Shown here: positions 4,948 to 60,916 of the stretch, piece by piece | Position numbering within the stretch: position 1 is the stretch's first letter | How the letters are laid out: each line of letters begins with the position of its first letter | NCBI GenBank assembly: GCA_029261815.1 | Contig: JAJDAQ010000069.1 | Coordinates: 12,340-76,339, forward strand | DNA length: 64,000 nucleotides | Direction: 5' to 3' | Source: Deltaproteobacteria bacterium | Lineage (GTDB): Bacteria; Myxococcota_A; UBA9160; UBA6930 | Translations under genes and position numbers: made by a program | The notes under the pieces: generated by a model | The model's database searches: none | What the model saw: only the letters and a program-made list of their open reading frames with translations | Told to the model about the DNA's origin: nothing

Positions 4948-6450
4948 CTAGTCTGCCGTCTCCAAGCGCTTGATCATCTTCTGGAGAGACTGCCGGGGGA
5001 TCCCGAGGCGTTCCGCCGCCCGTGTCTTCGAGCCCGTTTCTTCGAGTGCGGCGTGGATCATGGCTCGCTTCAGCTGGTCCACCGCCAGGTTGAGGTCCGT
5101 CTCATCGGGTAGCCCCGAGTCGCCTCCGCGTCCGCTGACACGCGGCGCCCGTGTCGATGTCGCGCCGCGGACCTCCTCGGAGAACATCTCGGGATGCAGC
5201 CGCACCTCGTCGCCCGCCAGCGCCACCGCCCGCTGGATCTCGTTCTCGAGTTCACGCACGTTGCCGCTCCAGACGTGGGCGGCCAACCGATCCATCGCCG
5301 AGTTGCTGAAGCCCTCGATCTTTCGGCCCATCTGTTCGCACGCCGAATCGAGGAAGTGGTGGGCCAACGCCGGAATATCCTCGACGCGATCGCGCAGGGG
5401 CGGCAGCTCGATCTCGACGACGCGGAGTCGATAGTAGAGGTCCTCTCGGAAGCGGCCCTCCTCGACGGCTTTCTTCAGATCGCGGTTGGTTGCCGCGATG
5501 ATGCGGACATCGACGCGACGCGTGTCCGACGAGCCCAGCGGCCGGATTTCGCCGTCCTGCAGCACGCGCAGCAGCCGAACCTGCATCCCGGGCTCTGTTT
5601 CTCCGACCTCGTCGAGGAAGATGCTTCCGTGATGGGCGACTTCAAACAGGCCCTTCTTGTCGGCGTGAGCGCCCGTGAACGAACCGCGCTTGTGCCCGAA
5701 GAGCTCGCTTTCGAGCAGGGTATCCGGGAGCGCGCCACAGTTCTGGGCCACGAACCGCTCTTCGCGCCGCGAGCCCGCGTAGTGCACGGCCCGCGCCACG
5801 AGATCCTTGCCCGTACCCGTCTCGCCGGTGATGAGCACCGTGGCATCGGTCTGGGCGACCTTCTCCATCACGTCGAAGACCCGCTGCATCGCGGGACTCG
5901 CACCGATGATGTTCTCGAACGAGTACTGCCCCTGCACTTCGCGACGTAGGAAGAGATTCTCGGCCCGGAGCTTCTCGTTCGCGACAGCGAGTGCGGACGC
6001 CAATTGGGTGTTCTCCGACGCCAGGCCATAGGCCTCCAGCGCGCGCTTCACGTCGAGCCGCAGCTCGTCGGGCTCCCACGGCTTCGAGATGTAGCGGTAG
6101 ATACGGCCGTCGTTGATGGCGCGAACGACTTCGTCGATGTTCGCCTGGCCCGTCAGCATCATGCGTACGGCTGCGGGGCGGACTTCAACCGCGCGCTTCA
6201 GGAATTCGACGCCGCTCATCTCGGGCATGATGTTGTCGACGATGACGAGCGCGAACTCCTCACGTTCGAGGAGTCCCAGCGCCGCATTCGGGTCGGTCGA
6301 CGTCACAACGTGATAATCGTCCTCCAGCGCGAACGCGAGGGACTCGACCACGCCCTCTTCGTCATCCACGACGAGGATCGAATAGGGCTTCGCTCCCGCC
6401 TCCCGGCGTGCGCCCTCGATGGCGTTCGAAAGGTCGGAACTCAAGCGCAT
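4948..6450 (-). CDS. sigma-54-dependent response regulator (NtrC family enhancer-binding protein)
   Basis: Receiver domain (ILVVDDEEG ... VIVDNIMPEMSG). AAA+ sigma-54 interaction domain (GETGTGKDLVARAVH, ESELFGHKRGSFTGA). C-terminal Fis-type HTH (AAERLGIPRQSLQKMIKRL). Start chosen at ATG 6450 (MRLSSDL); the longer ORF to 6609 is Arg/Pro-rich and unlikely to be coding. Confidence 0.92.
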   Translation of the reverse strand: MRLSSDLSNAIEGARREAGAKPYSILVVDDEEGVVESLAFALEDDYHVVTSTDPNAALGLLEREEFALVIVDNIMPEMSGVEFLKRAVEVRPAAVRMMLTGQANIDEVVRAINDGRIYRYISKPWEPDELRLDVKRALEAYGLASENTQLASALAVANEKLRAENLFLRREVQGQYSFENIIGASPAMQRVFDVMEKVAQTDATVLITGETGTGKDLVARAVHYAGSRREERFVAQNCGALPDTLLESELFGHKRGSFTGAHADKKGLFEVAHHGSIFLDEVGETEPGMQVRLLRVLQDGEIRPLGSSDTRRVDVRIIAATNRDLKKAVEEGRFREDLYYRLRVVEIELPPLRDRVEDIPALAHHFLDSACEQMGRKIEGFSNSAMDRLAAHVWSGNVRELENEIQRAVALAGDEVRLHPEMFSEEVRGATSTRAPRVSGRGGDSGLPDETDLNLAVDQLKRAMIHAALEETGSKTRAAERLGIPRQSLQKMIKRLETAD

Positions 6451-6639
6451 CGGCGGAGCCAGGGCACCGCGCACCTCCGAGCCGGACGGTACCCGGCGTG
6501 CGACGCGACGGCGAGGCCGCCCCGTCACACAGGGTGGGACCCGGCCTCCGGGAAGGGGACGTGGCGCAGCCGCACCACACACCACCCTGGCCCCCGGAGG
6601 CCGGTTCACCTTGCCGGCAGCTTCCCGCCGGAGCCCGCG

Positions 6640-7008
6640 TTAGCGGCGAGCCGTCTTCTTGCGAGCCGTCCGACCGGTGGTCTTGCGACGCGCGGTCTTC
6701 TTGGCCGGCTTCTTCGCGACCTTGCGCGTCGTACGCCGCGCCGTGGTCTTCTTCTTGGCCGTCTTGCGGGCGGGCTTGCGTCCGCGGCGGACCATCTTGG
6801 CCTTCGAGACGTCTCCGTCCTTGTCGATGAAATAGAGGAACCCGTCCTCCTTCTCGACCCCGACCTTGGCCACCGTTTGACGTGTGCCCTTCTTGGCCTT
6901 TCCCCCGCCGCCTGCGCGACGCACCCGGGCGACGTTGCCCCGGCGATCAAGGAAATACAGCCAGTCCTTTTCCCGCTTGACTCCAACCCTCGCGACCTTT
7001 GTGGCCAT
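6640..7008 (-). CDS. small basic protein: duplicated N-terminal module plus histone-H1-like K/R/T/A-rich C-terminal tail (candidate nucleoid-associated protein)
   Basis: 122 aa, with AGGAGG 6 nt upstream of ATG 7008. Internal repeat VARVGVKREKDWLYFLDRRGNVARV / VAKVGVEKEDGFLYFIDKDGDVSKA. Tail RRGRKPARKTAKKKTTARRTTRKVAKKPAKKTARRKTTGRTARKKTARR. Confidence 0.75.
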   Translation of the reverse strand: MATKVARVGVKREKDWLYFLDRRGNVARVRRAGGGGKAKKGTRQTVAKVGVEKEDGFLYFIDKDGDVSKAKMVRRGRKPARKTAKKKTTARRTTRKVAKKPAKKTARRKTTGRTARKKTARR

Positions 7009-29635: not shown

Positions 29636-29806
29636 CCGGGTCCCCTTGGGGGTGAACTTCTTCGCGGGTCGAGGGGTCCGAGAAGTGTCGGTTTTCGGCC
29701 CAGTGGCCGTGAATCGTCGCTTCCACGGGAAGCATGCCACCTGGGGTGGCACTTGAAACTCTTTTGTTTTCAACAGCTTGAAGAGATACCTCGGCCTCGG
29801 GGCGGG

Positions 29807-29823
29807 CTGGCACGGACGATGCA
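29807..29823 (+). promoter_or_regulatory. candidate sigma-54 (-24/-12) promoter
   Basis: CTGGCACGGACGATGCA differs from the consensus YTGGCACGrNNNTTGCW at one position, with correct GG-N10-GC spacing. It lies about 59 nt upstream of the 29882 start codon. Confidence 0.45.
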
Positions 29824-29881
29824 GTTCCAGACCCCAGGGCCCAAGCGCCCGATTGATCACCCGATGGAGGGGGGATTCCTC

Positions 29882-30082
29882 ATGGCCCAGACTGCAACCA
29901 CCGCGCTGTACGAACTGCCCTACGAAGAGGCCGTGCAGACGACGCTCCTCGAACTGGTCGAGACCGTCGGCGAGCTGACGGACGACGACCGCGAGGTCGT
30001 CGCGACCGTGATCCAACTGCTGCGCTCCGGTCGCGTGCGACTCACCGGCAATTTCCGCGGGCAGAAACTCGCCGAGGCGTAG
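29882..30082 (+). CDS. small acidic hypothetical protein (66 aa) immediately upstream of top6B
   Basis: ATG 29882 lies 7 nt after GGAGGGGGG. MAQTATTALYELPYEEAVQTTLLELVETVGELTDDDREVVATVIQLLRSGRVRLTGNFRGQKLAEA. GC3-biased codons. Confidence 0.55.
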   Translation: MAQTATTALYELPYEEAVQTTLLELVETVGELTDDDREVVATVIQLLRSGRVRLTGNFRGQKLAEA

Positions 30083-30130: not shown

Positions 30131-31966
30131 ATGAGCAAGCAGGGGAGCTTCACCTTCGAGGGCGAAGCCGGAGGCCAGGCGATGTCGGCCGCACCCGCCA
30201 AGGGCGGTGGCGCGGCGCGTGGCAAGAGCCGTGGCAGCGCGAAGAAAGCGCCGGCCAAGAAGACGACGACGACGGCGGCGAAGTCGGCGCACAAAGCTGC
30301 GAAGTCGGCGCACGAAGCTGCGAAGTCGGCGCGCAAAGCCGCGAAGTCCACACGCAAAGCGCCGAAGAGCGGCGCCGCGACTCGCAAGCCGAAGGAACGC
30401 ACCCGCTCCGATGCCACCCAGATGGCGACGAAGCAGCGGGACATTTCGGTCTCCGAGTTCTTCGCGAAGAACCGTCACCTCCTCGGGTTCGACAATCCGG
30501 CCAAGGCCCTCCTCACGACGGTGAAGGAAGGCGTCGACAACTCGCTCGACGCCTGTGAAGAAGCCGGCATCCTGCCCGACATTCGCGTCGAGATCCATCA
30601 GCAGGACGAGACGCGCTTCCGTGTCGTGATCGAAGACAACGGCCCCGGCATCGTGAAGGCCCAGGTGCCGAAGATCTTCGGTCGGCTGCTGTACGGCTCG
30701 AAATTCCACCGGTTGCGGCAGAGCCGGGGACAGCAGGGCATCGGGATCAGCGCAGCCGGCATGTATGGCCTGCTGACCACGGGCAAGCCGGTGAAGATCA
30801 TCACGCGAATCGGCAAGAAGAAGCCGGCGCAGCTATTCGAACTGGTGATCGATACCAAGACGAACGAGCCCAAGGTCACGCGCGAAGAGGTGGTCGACGA
30901 CTGGGCTCCGGAACACGGAACCCGCGTCGAGATCGAGATGGAGGGCGGTTACCGCGGCGGCCAGCACTCGGTCGATGCCTACGTACGGCAGATCTCGCTC
31001 GCGAATCCGCACGCGCGACTCGTCTACCTGCCTCCGAACCCGACCAAGACGAACGGCGCGATCGAATTCCCGCGCGTCACCGACGAACTCCCGCCGGAGA
31101 CCGCCGAGATCAAGCCGCACCCCTATGGCGTGGAGCTGGGCGTCCTGATGCAGATGTTCCGCGACACCCGCGCACGAAACGTCAAAGGCTGCTTGCAGTC
31201 CGACTTCGTACGCGTGTCCGCCGCCGTGGCCGAAGACATCTGCAAACGCGCCGGCGTCAAGCCCGGAAAGAAGGGTCCCGACGTTAGTCGGGACGAAGCC
31301 GAGAGCATCCACAAGGCGATCCTCAACACGAAGCTGATGGCACCGCCGACAGACTGCATCGCTCCCATTGGCGAGGATCTCCTGCTCGCGGCCCTGAAGG
31401 CCGAGGTAAGAGCCGACTTCTATGCGTCGGTGACACGTCGGCCCACCGTGTATCGCGGCAACCCGTTCATGATCGAAGCTGCGATCGCCTACGGGGGAGA
31501 TCTCTCGGGCGACGACTCAGCCCTCGTCTACCGCTTCGCCAACCGCGTGCCGCTGCAATACCAGCAGGGCGCGTGTGCGGTCACGAAGGCAGTCACGGGG
31601 ACGGACTGGAAGTCGTACCAGATGATGCAACCCCGTGGCGCCTTGCCTGTGGGCCCGATGATCATCATGGTGCACATCGCTTCGGTGTGGGTGCCCTTCA
31701 CTTCCGAGAGCAAGGAAGCGGTTGCCCACTATCCGGAGATCATCAAGGAGATGCGGCTCGCTCTACAGGAATGTGGACGTCGCGTCGCGACCCACATCCG
31801 AAAGCAGAAGCGCGAAGCCGACGAGGCCAAGAAGCGCGCCTACATCGAGAAGTACATCCCCCAGGTCGCCGTTGGCCTGCAGGAGATCCTGGGCTTCTCG
31901 GAGAAAGAACGCGACAAGGTCGTCACGAACCTCACCGAGGTTCTGGAAAAGAGCAGGAAGCTGTAA
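30131..31966 (+). CDS. top6B: DNA topoisomerase VI subunit B with about 97-aa Lys/Ala-rich N-terminal extension
   Basis: GHKL Bergerat-fold motifs: N-box [14 protein letters not shown]1 [10 protein letters not shown]2 [15 protein letters not shown]. The canonical N-terminus [18 protein letters not shown] begins around residue 105. An alternative start ATG 30422 would remove the tail. Confidence 0.93.
30278..30361 (+). repeat. 21-bp tandem repeat x4 inside the top6B 5' region (heptad AKSAHKA / AKSAHEA / AKSARKA / AKSTRKA)
   Basis: gcgaagtcggcgcacaaagct / gcgaagtcggcgcacgaagct / gcgaagtcggcgcgcaaagcc / gcgaagtccacacgcaaagcg, read directly from the sequence. Confidence 0.9.
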
Positions 31967-33225
31967 TGCCGGCACGCAAGAAGACGACGAAGGCGGCGCC
32001 CCGCAAAGCGGCCAAGAAGACGTCGAAGAAGACCGCGCGCAAGAAGACGACTTCAGCGCGAAAGCGCGCAACCAACGACGCCGAAGCCGAAAGGCGCGCG
32101 GGCGAAGTCGCCAAGAACAACGAGCGAATGAACGCTGTCACGGTCAAGGCGATCGAAAAAGCCGCGACCGGGGTGCACACGCGAATTCTCAAGAAGGGGA
32201 AGCCCGACCTCTCGTTCCCGATCCGCTCGCTCAAGAACGTGAGTTATTCGGACAAGCGTGGCTACTTCGAGATCGGAAAACAGAAGAAGACGCGAACCCT
32301 GACGGTCAACACCGTGAAGAACTTCGCACAAACGCTGCGGATGATGGGACTTTCGAAGGAGCTGGTGGAGAGCAACGACTTCGCCACCAAGCGAGACGCC
32401 TACTACCAGAGCAAGAATTGGGACGATGCGCGCTTCAGCGAACAGAGCGAGAGCGACGCTGTCATGGACGATATCGAAGCCATGTTCTCGGTCGACAGCG
32501 TGTCTCGCGAGCAGCTCCGCTTCATTCCGGACGAGGCCTCGAACGGCTCGGTGGCCGGCGAGCTGACGGTGCTCGACCCCGACCGCGACACCGGCGAGAT
32601 CATCCGCATCGACTGCACCGGCTTCGGCTCGGGCGCGTACGCGATCCCGTCCTCCGTCGAACAGCTCTCGTTCGAAACCGACGCTTCCTTCATCCTGTGC
32701 GTCGAAACAGGCGGCATCTTCCAGCGACTCCAGAGCCACAAGTTCTGGCAGAGTTCGAACTGCATCCTGATCTCGATGGGCGGCGTGCCTTCCCGCGCGT
32801 GCCGGCGCTTCGTTCGAAAGCTGTCGGATGAGGCCAAGATTCCGGTCTACGCCTTCGTCGATTGCGACCCCTACGGCATCTCGAACATCTACCGAACGCT
32901 CAAGGTCGGCTCGGGCAACGCGGCGCACCTTTCAAGATTCTTCTGTGTGCCCCAGGCGCAGTACCTGGGTGTCACGCCACAGGACATCGTGGACTATGAA
33001 CTGCCGACTCATCCATTGCAGGATGTCGACATCAAGCGTGCCAAGGATGCCCTGAAGAACGACCCGTTCTTCCGGGCACACAAGCCCTGGCAGAAGGCCC
33101 TGAATGATCTCTTGAAGATGGGCGTGCGTGCCGAACAGCAGGCACTGGCGAAGTGGGGCCTCAACTACGTGATCGAGGAATACCTGCCCGCCAAACTCGA
33201 CAACCCGGCCCAGTTCCTCCCGTAG
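31966..33225 (+). CDS. top6A: DNA topoisomerase VI subunit A (Spo11 family) with about 35-aa basic N-terminal tail
   Basis: The start ATG overlaps the top6B stop (TAATG). Catalytic-Tyr region ATKRDAYYQ. Toprim Glu [13 protein letters not shown]. Dx[14 protein letters not shown]. Tail [35 protein letters not shown]. Confidence 0.93.
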
Positions 33226-33244: not shown

Positions 33245-34117
33245 ATGAAAGGCATCGTCCTCGCCGGAGGATCGGGCACTCGTCTCTATCCGATCACCAA
33301 GGGCGTCTCCAAACAGCTGCTGCCGGTCTACGACAAGCCGATGGTCTACTACCCGTTGTCGGTGCTGATGCTCGCTGGCATCCGCGACGTGCTCCTCATC
33401 TCGACGCCCCACGACCTTCCGGGCTTCCAGCAGCTACTCGGCGATGGCGCCCACGTTGGCCTCTCGATCCAGTATGCGGCGCAGGCCGAGCCGAACGGTA
33501 TCGCCGAAGCGTTCCGGATCGGGCGAGACTTCATCGGGAACGACTCGGTCGCACTCGCCCTCGGCGACAACATCTTCTACGGACATGGCCTACCGGAGCA
33601 ACTTCGCGGCGCTGCTGCGCGCGGCACTGGCGGGACGGTGTTCGGCTACTGGGTGCGCGACCCCGAACGGTACGGTGTGGTCGAGTTCGATGACGAAGGT
33701 CGCGTGCTCTCGATCGAGGAAAAACCGGAGCGGCCGCGTTCATCGTGGGCCGTGACCGGGCTCTACTTCTACGACTCCGATGTCGTGTCGATCGCAGACA
33801 GCCTGAAGCCGTCGCCGCGCGGCGAACTCGAGATCACGGACGTGAACCTCGCGTACCTGGAACGCGGCGACTTGCACGTCGAGCGCCTCGGCCGAGGCTT
33901 CGCCTGGCTGGACACCGGCACCCACGAATCGCTTCAGCAGGCCGGCGGTTTCATCCAGGCGGTTCAGGAGCGACAGGGATTGATGGTCTCGTGCATCGAG
34001 GAGATTGCCTGGCGCATGGGCTACATCGACGACGCTGGACTCCAGGCGCTCGCCACTGAAATGTCGAAGAACGACTACGGCGCGTACCTGCAGCGCCTCC
34101 TGAAGGATGGACGTTAG
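33245..34117 (+). CDS. rfbA: glucose-1-phosphate thymidylyltransferase
   Basis: [39 protein letters not shown] is near-canonical RmlA. Confidence 0.96.
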
Positions 34118-34119
34118 GC

Positions 34120-34674
34120 GTGGAGTTCGTCCGCCAGTCGATCGCCGATGTCATCCTGGTCAAACCCGACGTCCATGGGGACGCTCGCGGTTATTTCCTC
34201 GAGACCTGGCACGCCGAGAAGTACGCCGAAGGCGGCGTCGACGCCGCCTTCGTCCAGGACAACCACTCCCGCTCCCAGCACGGCATCCTGCGAGGGCTCC
34301 ATGCCCAGCTTGAACCCCTCCAGGGGAAACTCGTTCGCTGCATTTCCGGCGAAATCTGGGATGTCGCCGTCGACGCACGACCCGGCTCTCCAACCTACGG
34401 CCAGTACGTGGGCGCGACCCTGACCGGCGAGAACCATCACCAGCTCTGGGTGCCGGGCGGATTCCTACACGGCTTCGTCGTGCTCTCCGATGTGGCCGAC
34501 GTCGCCTACAAGTGCACATCGCTCTATCGACCAGAGGGCGAGATCGCCGTGGCCTGGAACGACCCCGCGCTGGCCGTGCCGTGGCCAATCGCGGACCCCC
34601 AGGTGTCTGCTCGCGACCAGGAGGCGCCGCCGCTCGCGGCCTTCGAGGACCAGCTCCGCGCTCGCCTTGGCTAG
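34120..34674 (+). CDS. rfbC: dTDP-4-dehydrorhamnose 3,5-epimerase
   Basis: HGDARGYFLETW, QDNHSRSQHGILRGLH and FLHGF are RmlC cupin motifs. Confidence 0.94.
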   Translation: MEFVRQSIADVILVKPDVHGDARGYFLETWHAEKYAEGGVDAAFVQDNHSRSQHGILRGLHAQLEPLQGKLVRCISGEIWDVAVDARPGSPTYGQYVGATLTGENHHQLWVPGGFLHGFVVLSDVADVAYKCTSLYRPEGEIAVAWNDPALAVPWPIADPQVSARDQEAPPLAAFEDQLRARLG

Positions 34675-60017: not shown

Positions 60018-60202
60018 CGGGCCTCCCGGGCTTCGCGCATGGTGCGCCGGATCGGCTGCAATGAAAAGTGGGAAAACCGATTCCTGCTTTTGCCGGGTCC
60101 GCAAGGAATTGCGAGAGGCAACCCGCGCGGCCAAGCGCGCGTTCTCGCAGGTATCTCAGCCGGAATCCGCGGGCTGGCACGATCCCTGCTTTACCGGAGC
60201 CC

Positions 60203-60916
60203 ATGACGCACCAACTCCGCCTCCCCATGAACTCCGGAAGCCGCTGGCTCAGATCCGCCGGGCTCGCCTTCGCGATGCTCCTCTTCGCCGCGTCGGCTTC
60301 CGCCACCACCTTTACCGTCCACGGATTCGAGCTGGGCGAGCGGATCACCGTATTCGGCAGCCGCAGCGTGAACACGGCGCTCCTCGATGTATCACTCGAC
60401 GCCATGCGCGGGGAGTCGTTCTGTGTCGACCTCGACACCTACATCTCGACCTCGGCCTACGACGTGCGCGCGGTCCTCGACCCGTTCGTGGACCCGGCTC
60501 CGGCAGACGAGGCGCCGCGCGACCTCGCCTGGGCCGGCTTCGTCATGAATAACTTCGGCTTCGATGTGGGCCAACTCGTCAGCGCCACGGTCACGCGCGT
60601 CCAGGCGATCACGGGCGTTCAAGCCGCCATCTGGGAGGGCATCTACGGGGGCAACGTCGTCGACGACAGCAGCCTTTCCGCGGGCGCCCAGGAGATCTTC
60701 TTCCGGATCCTGAACGCCGGCGGCGGGTGGATCGGTGGCGGGGCCGATGGCGGCGAGCCCGGCGGCGGCTTCGCTCTGGAAGGTCCGGCCGTTGTGGTCG
60801 ACCTGGCCAACAACCAGGATCAGGTCTTCACCAAGCCGATCCCGGAACCGAGCGCCGCGCTGGTGTTCGGCATCGGTGCCTTGCTGGTCGGTGCTACCCG
60901 GCGGACGCGCGCCTAG
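60203..60916 (+). CDS. PEP-CTERM-tailed surface protein with thioester-domain (TQXA-type) signature
   Basis: Signal peptide LAFAMLLFAASASA. SFCVDLD (Cys74, codon 60422..60424) and GVQAAIW (Gln140, codon 60620..60622). C-terminal PIPEPSAALVFGIGALLVGATRRTRA. Confidence 0.75.
   Translation: MTHQLRLPMNSGSRWLRSAGLAFAMLLFAASASATTFTVHGFELGERITVFGSRSVNTALLDVSLDAMRGESFCVDLDTYISTSAYDVRAVLDPFVDPAPADEAPRDLAWAGFVMNNFGFDVGQLVSATVTRVQAITGVQAAIWEGIYGGNVVDDSSLSAGAQEIFFRILNAGGGWIGGGADGGEPGGGFALEGPAVVVDLANNQDQVFTKPIPEPSAALVFGIGALLVGATRRTRA

Follow-up and report, generated by a model that had tools for sequence, protein, structure and literature searches.

DNA topoisomerase VI (Topo VI) serves as model enzyme both for the type IIB topoisomerases and for Spo11, and nearly all that is known of it comes from two or three archaeal enzymes that are slow and distributive in vitro. 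In the Methanosarcina mazei enzyme, strand passage is distributive and requires a KGRR loop of subunit B, which acts as a sensor of DNA crossings (PMC5922973). Bacterial Topo VI was described in a 2014 analysis as sequences that “cannot be distinguished” from archaeal homologues (PMC4117785). In the type IA enzymes, the Lys-repeat C-terminal domain of Streptomyces TopA stabilizes the enzyme-DNA complex and confers high processivity (PMC5714199). Here we describe the top6B-top6A locus at positions 30131 to 33225 of a 64,000-nucleotide stretch of Deltaproteobacteria bacterium (lineage UBA9160; UBA6930; contig JAJDAQ010000069.1, positions 12,340 to 76,339; hereafter “the window”). The locus encodes a predicted archaeal-type Topo VI in which both subunits carry strongly basic N-terminal tails, and the tail of subunit B begins with a short conserved peptide that is a candidate ligand of the bacterial beta sliding clamp.

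In the open reading frame (ORF) listing, top6B (DNA topoisomerase VI subunit B) is a 611-aa ORF at 30131..31966 on the plus strand, and top6A (subunit A; 419 aa, same strand) runs from ATG 31966 to 33225. The TAA stop of top6B overlaps the ATG of top6A as TAATG, in GCTGTAATGCC. Top6B scored 690.6 bits against the NCBIfam equivalog NF003218 (cut-off, 274) and had accepted Pfam matches to HATPase_c and Topo-VIb_trans; Top6A matched TP6A_N, Topo_VI_alpha and TOP6A-Spo11_Toprim, each above its gathering score. The features of the catalytic core are as follows.

30503..30799, plus strand: GHKL ATPase domain of Top6B (HATPase_c, residues 125-223).
31343..31834, plus strand: transducer domain of Top6B (Topo-VIb_trans, 202.5 bits, residues 405-568).
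31607..31618, plus strand: WKSY stalk motif (WKxY), within the Top6B transducer.
32389..32409, plus strand: KRDAYYQ, catalytic tyrosine region in the 5Y-CAP/winged-helix domain of Top6A (TP6A_N, 58.9 bits, residues 118-177).
32689..33198, plus strand: Toprim domain of Top6A (TOP6A-Spo11_Toprim, 201.6 bits).
32701..32715, plus strand: VETGG, metal-binding Glu of the Top6A Toprim domain.
32860..32877, plus strand: DCDPYG, DxD motif of the Top6A Toprim domain.

Alignment to archaeal enzymes with solved structures supported the same assignment. M. mazei Top6B (2Q2E_B) matched the window Top6B at 510 bits, up to approximately residue 590 of 611, and the GHKL motifs (EGVDNSLDA, the N-box, at residue 133; DNGPGI, G1, at 169; GQQGIGIS, G2, at 200) and the WKxY motif (WKSY, residues 493-496) aligned residue for residue. 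The N-box, G1 and G2 were invariant across 116 Top6B homologues, and K528 of the transducer (SESKE motif) was invariant in the clade and aligned with the archaeal structures. Top6A of Methanocaldococcus jannaschii (1D3Y) matched the window subunit at 360 bits over 307 residues, with its REAYYVS (catalytic tyrosine, 5Y-CAP) opposite RDAYYQ (within KRDAYYQ at residue 142) and its IETSG and DGDPYG (Toprim Glu and DxD) opposite VETGG (residue 246) and DCDPYG (residue 299). An earlier, sequence-only reading of this DNA had proposed a translationally coupled, complete Topo VI and quoted these catalytic motifs; family models, structure alignments and the TAATG overlap bear out the first proposal, and all of the motifs lie where that reading placed them, with catalytic residues that align to the archaeal structures. 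The locus can thus be assigned securely, by sequence, to a complete type IIB topoisomerase of archaeal type that has every catalytic motif. ATP-dependent strand passage by an A2B2 tetramer is the predicted activity, and the TAATG overlap is consistent with matched production of the subunits. The Top6A core was much nearer to M. jannaschii (360 bits) than to the full-length subunits of M. mazei (203 bits) or Sulfolobus shibatae (171 bits), and this nearness may be a clue to the archaeal lineage that donated the enzyme to the bacterial clade.

The window enzyme departs from these archaeal proteins at its N termini. Residue 95 of Top6B aligned to residue 6 of M. mazei Top6B, leaving approximately 94 extra residues, and residue 50 of Top6A aligned to residue 7 of M. 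mazei Top6A, leaving approximately 43. The extensions and the elements within them are listed below.

30131..30412, plus strand: N-terminal extension of Top6B, residues 1-94 (structure alignment, G+C content at third codon positions [GC3] and AlphaFold2 [AF2]).
30140..30157, plus strand: QGSFTF, Top6B residues 4-9, candidate beta-clamp-binding motif (conservation).
30278..30348, plus strand: 21-bp tandem repeat, 3.4 copies, in the Top6B tail (Tandem Repeats Finder, 92% matches, score 121).
31966..32070, plus strand: Lys/Thr/Ala-rich N-terminal tail of Top6A (comparison with homologues and archaeal structures).

Both extensions are strongly basic and have the codon usage of coding DNA, as the sequence-only reading had maintained. 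Residues 1-94 of Top6B contain 24 Lys and Arg and 5 Asp and Glu (net +19; isoelectric point [pI], 11.5), and residues 1-36 of Top6A contain 16 Lys and Arg with no acidic residue (net +16; pI 12.0). In-frame GC3 was 0.82 in both tails, equal to that of the catalytic cores; in the Top6B tail the two other frames gave 0.58 and 0.69. A Shine-Dalgarno-like GGGGGA lies 5′ of ATG 30131. Comparison of 31 species placed the Top6B start codon exactly three codons 5′ of an invariant Gln, with AGC as well as TCN codons for the following Ser and the synonymous TTC and TTT for Phe, a codon-level pattern that, with the fixed start position, indicates selection on the protein. Orthologous Top6B tails vary in length, yet the reading frame is kept from the N-terminal motif into the core. 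Codon usage and comparison together indicate that the tails are translated coding sequence. The 21-bp repeat in the Top6B tail is in frame and encodes AAKSA(H/R)K heptads, and orthologous tails are also repeat-built; from these patterns, the tails appear to evolve by repeat expansion. An AF2 model of Top6B, built on a 116-sequence alignment, was confident in the core and assigned residues 1-83 a predicted local distance difference test score (pLDDT) below 50 with no secondary structure, so that residues 1 to ∼83 are predicted to be disordered. Only 3 of the ∼51 predicted genes in the window have such basic tails (Top6B, Top6A and a gene at 6640..7008), which rules out tails as a general habit of this proteome.

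To place the locus among its relatives, one genome per GTDB species was scanned with Top6A as the query, and close relatives were found in 433 species-level genomes. The best 80 of these 433 genomes (67-89% identity) belong almost entirely to uncultured Myxococcota or “Deltaproteobacteria” metagenome-assembled genomes (MAGs), including UBA9160 and UBA6930. Protein searches returned at least 8000 candidates, essentially all at E ≤ 1e-20. The view that Topo VI is reported in only a few bacteria is therefore out of date. Tail statistics rest on the 120 closest Top6B (68-100% identity) and the 120 closest Top6A homologues. A Top6B extension of 21-115 aa was present in 115 of the 120 (median length, 55 aa; median net charge, +12), and all 120 Top6A homologues had a basic Lys/Ala/Thr-rich tail, most of them beginning MAARKK (median, 35 aa; net +12). 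Thus, the tails are a trait of the whole clade rather than a peculiarity of this locus, and in sequence comparison they are conserved across hundreds of species in composition and position but not in sequence. The orthologue alignment that the sequence-only reading had proposed as a check shows recurrent, lineage-specific tails.

Beyond the clade, the two tails part company. The alignment showed no basic tails on the archaeal enzymes with solved structures, and when 1.84 billion cluster representatives were searched with the Top6B core, archaeal-type Top6B had only 7-20 residues before the conserved S-x-SEFF anchor. Top6B extensions do occur in several other bacterial lineages whose Top6A is short (362-383 aa): the Top6A of a Polyangiaceae contig (L084) has 372 aa and lacks a long Lys-rich tail, that of an intein-containing bacterial contig (L085) has 362 aa and is untailed, and that of a further bacterial lineage has 383 aa and is likewise untailed. 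On present sequence sampling, basic tails on both subunits are seen only in the clade containing the window. Searches of the literature for bacterial Topo VI tails, Topo VI in Myxococcota or Deltaproteobacteria, Topo VI with sigma-54, and clamp-binding topoisomerases found nothing relevant, and the earlier impression that tails on both subunits of a type IIB enzyme are undescribed agrees with the absence of any such description in the searchable literature. Several of the next-closest Top6B representatives (P0242, P0243-P0245 and others) are 780-1150 aa long and were matched in two stretches; P0242 (L085, 6001..9453), on a clearly bacterial contig, holds an intein (Intein_splicing, LAGLIDADG) and has a basic N-terminal tail, but its partner Top6A (362 aa) has none.

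The neighborhood of the locus is also conserved, with a ComM/YifB-like gene upstream and RmlA and RmlC downstream. This conservation, together with the unremarkable base composition of the window, points to a vertically inherited chromosomal gene rather than a recent insertion or a contaminant. The rmlA-like (NTP_transferase) and rmlC-like genes (33245..34674, plus strand) start 19 nt past the top6A stop and are kept downstream of top6A in 50-53 of the 80 loci, for which either co-transcription with Topo VI or synteny alone could account. Close relatives of this Topo VI were also recovered from MAGs labelled Vicinamibacteria, Marinacidobacterales, Spirochaetales, Opitutales and Gammaproteobacteria (L078, L080, L005, L019, L021-L023, L040), which would reflect horizontal transfer or, more likely for automated third-party annotation (TPA) bins, wrong taxonomic labels.

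The most informative feature of the locus is one that the sequence-only reading overlooked, a conserved motif at the tip of the Top6B tail. The tail begins MSKQGSFTF, and the conserved form is M-x-x-Q-x-S-[FL]-x-F. A motif of the type Q-x-x-[FLMI]-(F or x-[FL]) occurred within the first 20 residues in 88 of the 120 Top6B homologues, most often as QESFAF (31), QGSLF (10), QQSLAF (8), QGSFAF (6) or QRSLSF (6), with other forms making up the remainder. When each tail was shuffled, composition alone predicted 0.56 tails with the motif against 88 of 113 observed (86 of these with the motif in the first 20 residues), a figure that measures conservation and not repeated independent origin, since the homologues are not independent samples. 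As a control within the same loci, 32 of 73 Top6B ORFs had the motif among their first 20 residues versus 5 of 803 other long ORFs, and none of the 120 Top6A tails had it. Three orthologues (L041, L045, L061) have QLVLGL at the same position, two (L044, L050) have QLELV, and two (L078, L080) carry QIELPL, which in both lies inside the tail rather than at its tip. Distant bacterial Top6B proteins with non-basic tails carry QLSLL, QASLF, QGGLF or QPALSL near the N terminus.

These forms resemble peptides by which bacterial proteins bind the beta sliding clamp, as Hda does through the motif QLSLPL at its N terminus. The clamp-binding pentapeptide is Q-phi-x-L-F (consensus QL[S/D]LF) and the hexapeptide is Q-phi-x-L-x-L, with known examples in Pol IV (QLVLGL), Pol III alpha (QVELEF) and MutS (QLSFF) (PMC12309361; PMC3716654; bioRxiv 10.64898/2026.05.27.728225). 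The QLVLGL of the three orthologues is thus identical to the motif of Escherichia coli Pol IV, and QIELPL fits the hexapeptide. The window's own QGSFTF, which falls in the predicted disordered stretch, retains the Gln as well as the S/D and hydrophobic positions. No dnaN was identified among the annotated genes of the window. A PCNA-type PCNA-interacting peptide (PIP) box (Qxx[ILM]xx[FY][FY]) was considered for the motif and rejected, as there is no aromatic pair at +7/+8. On this sequence evidence, binding of the Top6B N-terminal peptide to the beta clamp is a well-motivated hypothesis, to which we give a little less than an even chance.

Several points weigh against clamp binding. QGSFTF is off-consensus, having Gly at position 2, where an aliphatic residue is expected, and Phe in place of Leu at position 4; such departures can weaken or abolish binding, as in QEMIVP of Bacillus subtilis MutL (bioRxiv 10.64898/2026.05.27.728225). 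The motif is missing altogether from about a quarter to a third of Top6B orthologues, and a review's table of clamp partners contains no bacterial topoisomerase (PMC9690074, Table 1). To these can be added the shared ancestry of the homologues behind the shuffle statistics, and the fact that we infer both DNA binding by the tails and clamp binding from sequence alone. The AF2 model of Top6B, moreover, is of a monomer and cannot show docking to a partner. It is because QGSFTF is off-consensus and the motif is absent from a quarter to a third of orthologues that clamp binding is kept here as a hypothesis.

The alternative that survives best is that the tails are electrostatic tethers only and that the N-terminal peptide is something other than a clamp motif: a ligand of another partner (SMC/ScpAB, a partition protein, Top6A or the small acidic protein encoded upstream), a degron, or an intramolecular regulator of the ATPase gate. 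It gains from the off-consensus character not only of QGSFTF but also of the commonest form, QESFAF (non-aliphatic position 2, Phe at position 4; bioRxiv 10.64898/2026.05.27.728225), from the many orthologues that work without the motif, and from the lack of any bacterial topoisomerase known as a clamp binder (PMC9690074). However, orthologous positions are occupied by the textbook clamp motifs QLVLGL, QIELPL, QGSLF and QLSLL. The small acidic protein was rejected as the partner because presence of the motif and of the small ORF did not co-vary (motif/small-ORF counts of 30, 6, 16 and 7), and a fixed intramolecular contact is disfavored both by the undocked motif in the AF2 model and by the variable linker of 50-100 aa. 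We consider this alternative unlikely overall, but it is the one that we take most seriously.

Whether or not the peptide binds the clamp, tails without the motif were more basic than those with it (net charge over the last 70 aa, +18.4 versus +10.7), which suggests two alternative, interchangeable modes of tethering. A second difference from the archaeal enzymes lies in the core of Top6B.

30953..30964, plus strand: RGGQ, Top6B residues 275-278, aligned to the KGRR loop of M. mazei Top6B (structure alignment).

RGGQ retains one of the three basic residues of KGRR, and R275, G276 and G277 are invariant in the clade, whereas most other Top6B representatives keep K/R-G-R/K with two or three basic residues. 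Archaeal enzymes also differ from one another in this loop, S. shibatae having PKAK there, and RGGQ is a functional difference that does not exclude the protein from the Top6B family. It is a reasonable, though unproven, proposal that the polycationic tails make up for the degenerate KGRR loop.

Upstream of top6B lie two further conserved elements, both of which the sequence-only reading had included in a proposed DNA-topology/chromatin module.

29882..30082, plus strand: conserved acidic small ORF, 66 aa (likely start ATG 29882, with GGAGG before it).
29808..29823, plus strand: sigma-54-type −24/−12 element TGGCACGGACGATGCA (GG-N10-GC), 59 nt upstream of the small ORF.

The small ORF (product pI 4.4, net −5) proved to be a conserved gene, as had been supposed: 53 of the 80 loci have it immediately before top6B (40-88% identity), and 436 homologues were found, mostly of 66-70 aa and none with a Pfam domain. 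It matched no Pfam or NCBIfam family, and 120 of its homologues searched against Pfam gave only sub-threshold THDPS_N_2 noise; an AF2 model had a mean pLDDT of 63.5, and Foldseek against the Protein Data Bank (PDB) returned nothing at E <4. The public gene call is longer (P0391, 87 aa, 29819..30082) and starts at an ATG inside the −12 element of the sigma-54 site. ATG 29882 is preferred as the start because most orthologues have 66-70 aa.

The sigma-54-type promoter that had been suggested is present and conserved, but not at the TGGCAC near 29747, which has no GC at −12 and was rejected as a site; the functional-looking copy is that at 29808..29823, which fits TGGCAC-N5-TTGCW with the invariant GG and GC 10 nt apart. 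The search pattern TGGCAC-N6-TGCW had two matches in the window versus 0.2 expected. The second match (60175..60190, plus strand, TGGCACGATCCCTGCT) lies inside or just before the predicted ORF 60068..60916, the true start of which may, given this match, be further downstream. In 40 of 50 orthologous loci an equivalent site precedes the small ORF by 33-81 nt, with TGGCA and TGC invariant, against a background of 2 matches in 1.16 Mb. The site was present in 37 of 46 loci with the small ORF and in none of the 13 loci without it, and so belongs to the small ORF; those 13 (of 59 orthologous loci) have tailed Topo VI and neither element, which makes the acidic ORF and the sigma-54 site accessory rather than obligatory. 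Given a gap of just 48 nt and no terminator-like site, the sigma-54 site may also drive top6BA, and between 29500 and 33500 neither a sigma-70-like promoter nor a plus-strand terminator was found. Because the site tracks the small ORF and not top6B, however, it may not drive the topoisomerase genes, which counts against that part of the mechanism proposed below. Rfam and tRNA scans of the window found no RNA element.

The chromatin module itself, in which Topo VI would join the acidic ORF product and a separate basic protein in histone-like structuring of the nucleoid, fared poorly. The basic protein is encoded at 6640..7008 on the minus strand (122 aa, no Pfam family), directly upstream of, and on the same strand as, the gene for a sigma-54 enhancer-binding response regulator (4948..6609), and consists of two ∼20-aa repeats, VGVKREKDWLYFLDRRGNV and VGVEKEDGFLYFIDKDGDV, followed by a KKTARRK-type Lys/Thr/Arg-rich C-terminal tail resembling that of Top6A. 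The composition of the topoisomerase tails (K, A, T, R, P, S) does resemble H1 and AlgP-type Lys/Ala/Pro repeats, a basic-tailed protein does occur in the same window, and the acidic ORF is conserved beside top6B. The label “histone-H1-like” therefore holds for composition but not for family membership, as Pfam detected only topoisomerase domains in Top6A and Top6B, with no linker-histone or other architectural DNA-binding domain. The gene for the basic protein is ∼23 kb distant and on the opposite strand, and no evidence ties its product to Topo VI; 13 of the 59 loci that have tailed Topo VI lack the acidic ORF, the product of which has a net charge of only −5; and a sigma-54-driven enzyme would be unlikely to be abundant enough to structure a nucleoid. 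We regard such a module as very improbable. Least credible of all is that the extensions are an annotation artefact or neutral low-complexity drift with true starts at internal codons, such as Met97 (MATKQRDI; ATG 30419, given as 30422 in the sequence-only reading): a few database entries do start at MA.KQRDI (513-518 aa; P0056, P0078, P0089, P0118) and tail sequence itself is poorly conserved, but the in-frame GC3 of 0.82, the N-terminal peptide with its codon-level signs of protein selection, the conserved start-codon position, the basic composition kept across hundreds of species despite sequence turnover, the GGGGGA before ATG 30131 and the 340-nt coding-like gap that an internal start would leave make such a start very unlikely.

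The reading that we favor, with moderate confidence and from sequence patterns, has the tails serving as electrostatic tethers to DNA, to which Top6B may add a clamp tether. An A2B2 holoenzyme would carry four tails with a net charge of ∼+70 in total, acting as non-specific tethers that raise local DNA affinity and dwell time. The Top6B tail would exit at the entry point of the T-segment, atop the ATPase gate, and the Top6A tail near the A-B junction, beside the G-segment. If the Top6B tip peptide binds clamps, it would hook the enzyme to those left on newly replicated DNA and so place a decatenase where precatenanes and crossings arise; in lineages lacking the motif, a more basic tail would take over the tethering. 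In most members, the sigma-54 promoter would start transcription of the small acidic ORF and probably of the whole operon, making expression dependent on an enhancer-binding activator. The most far-reaching version of this account is that a Topo VI moved from archaea to bacteria was wired into the replisome through a clamp peptide on the Top6B tail and that, in one large uncultured Myxococcota clade with the sigma-54 promoter and acidic ORF upstream in most members, this tether was reinforced, or in some lineages replaced, by polycationic tails on both subunits, compensating for the degenerate KGRR loop. We consider this full sequence of events possible but, taken as a whole, less probable than not.

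The locus draws attention to a large bacterial radiation of Topo VI, with 433 species genomes and thousands of metagenomic proteins, that bears lineage-specific disordered appendages, one of them with a motif of partner-binding type. Should the tails raise DNA affinity or processivity, this radiation would amount to a natural experiment on how a type IIB enzyme is tuned. If the clamp is indeed bound by the tip of Top6B, the enzyme would be the first clamp-tethered type II topoisomerase, would reveal a previously unknown route by which a decatenase reaches newly replicated bacterial DNA, and would show how an archaeal enzyme gained by horizontal transfer is connected to a hub of bacterial protein interactions.

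Compared with archaeal Topo VI (M. mazei, 2Q2E; S. shibatae, 2ZBK; M. jannaschii, 1D3Y), the window enzyme has the same two-subunit architecture and gene order, and shares the GHKL, H2TH, transducer and WKxY elements of Top6B and the 5Y-CAP tyrosine and Toprim Glu/DxD of Top6A. It differs in the ∼94 (Top6B) and ∼43 (Top6A) extra residues, disordered and basic, in the short hydrophobic motif with which the Top6B tail starts, and in its bacterial host with a sigma-54 promoter context; with respect to M. mazei in particular, it has RGGQ in place of KGRR, and its Top6B has no C-terminal domain of the type found there. Other bacterial Topo VI enzymes (the Polyangiaceae L084, the intein-containing L085, and L082/L083) share a Top6B extension with a Q-x-x-L-type motif (QPALSL, QMALVE, QASLF, QGGLF), but their Top6B tails are often non-basic, their Top6A (362-383 aa) is untailed and no acidic ORF lies upstream. 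The likeness to beta-clamp-binding proteins lies in the placing of a short Q-x-x-[L/F]-(x)-[F/L] peptide at the very tip of a flexible segment and in the occurrence of both penta- and hexapeptide forms among Top6B orthologues, including a string identical to that of Pol IV; the commonest Top6B forms (QESFAF, QGSFTF), in contrast, are non-aliphatic at position 2, and binding here is predicted. Actinobacterial TopA (Streptomyces/Mycobacterium) likewise carries a low-complexity, Lys/Ala-rich, repeat-built extension on a topoisomerase (PMC5714199). TopA is a type IA monomer with a C-terminal tail, whereas the window tails are N-terminal, occur on both subunits of a type IIB enzyme and in one case bear a tip motif; nonetheless, its Lys-repeat domain appears to be the best functional analogy for them. 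In these terms the enzyme itself is ordinary, its tails are a plausible device for raising DNA affinity, and the clamp tether is a specific hypothesis that would be notable if true.

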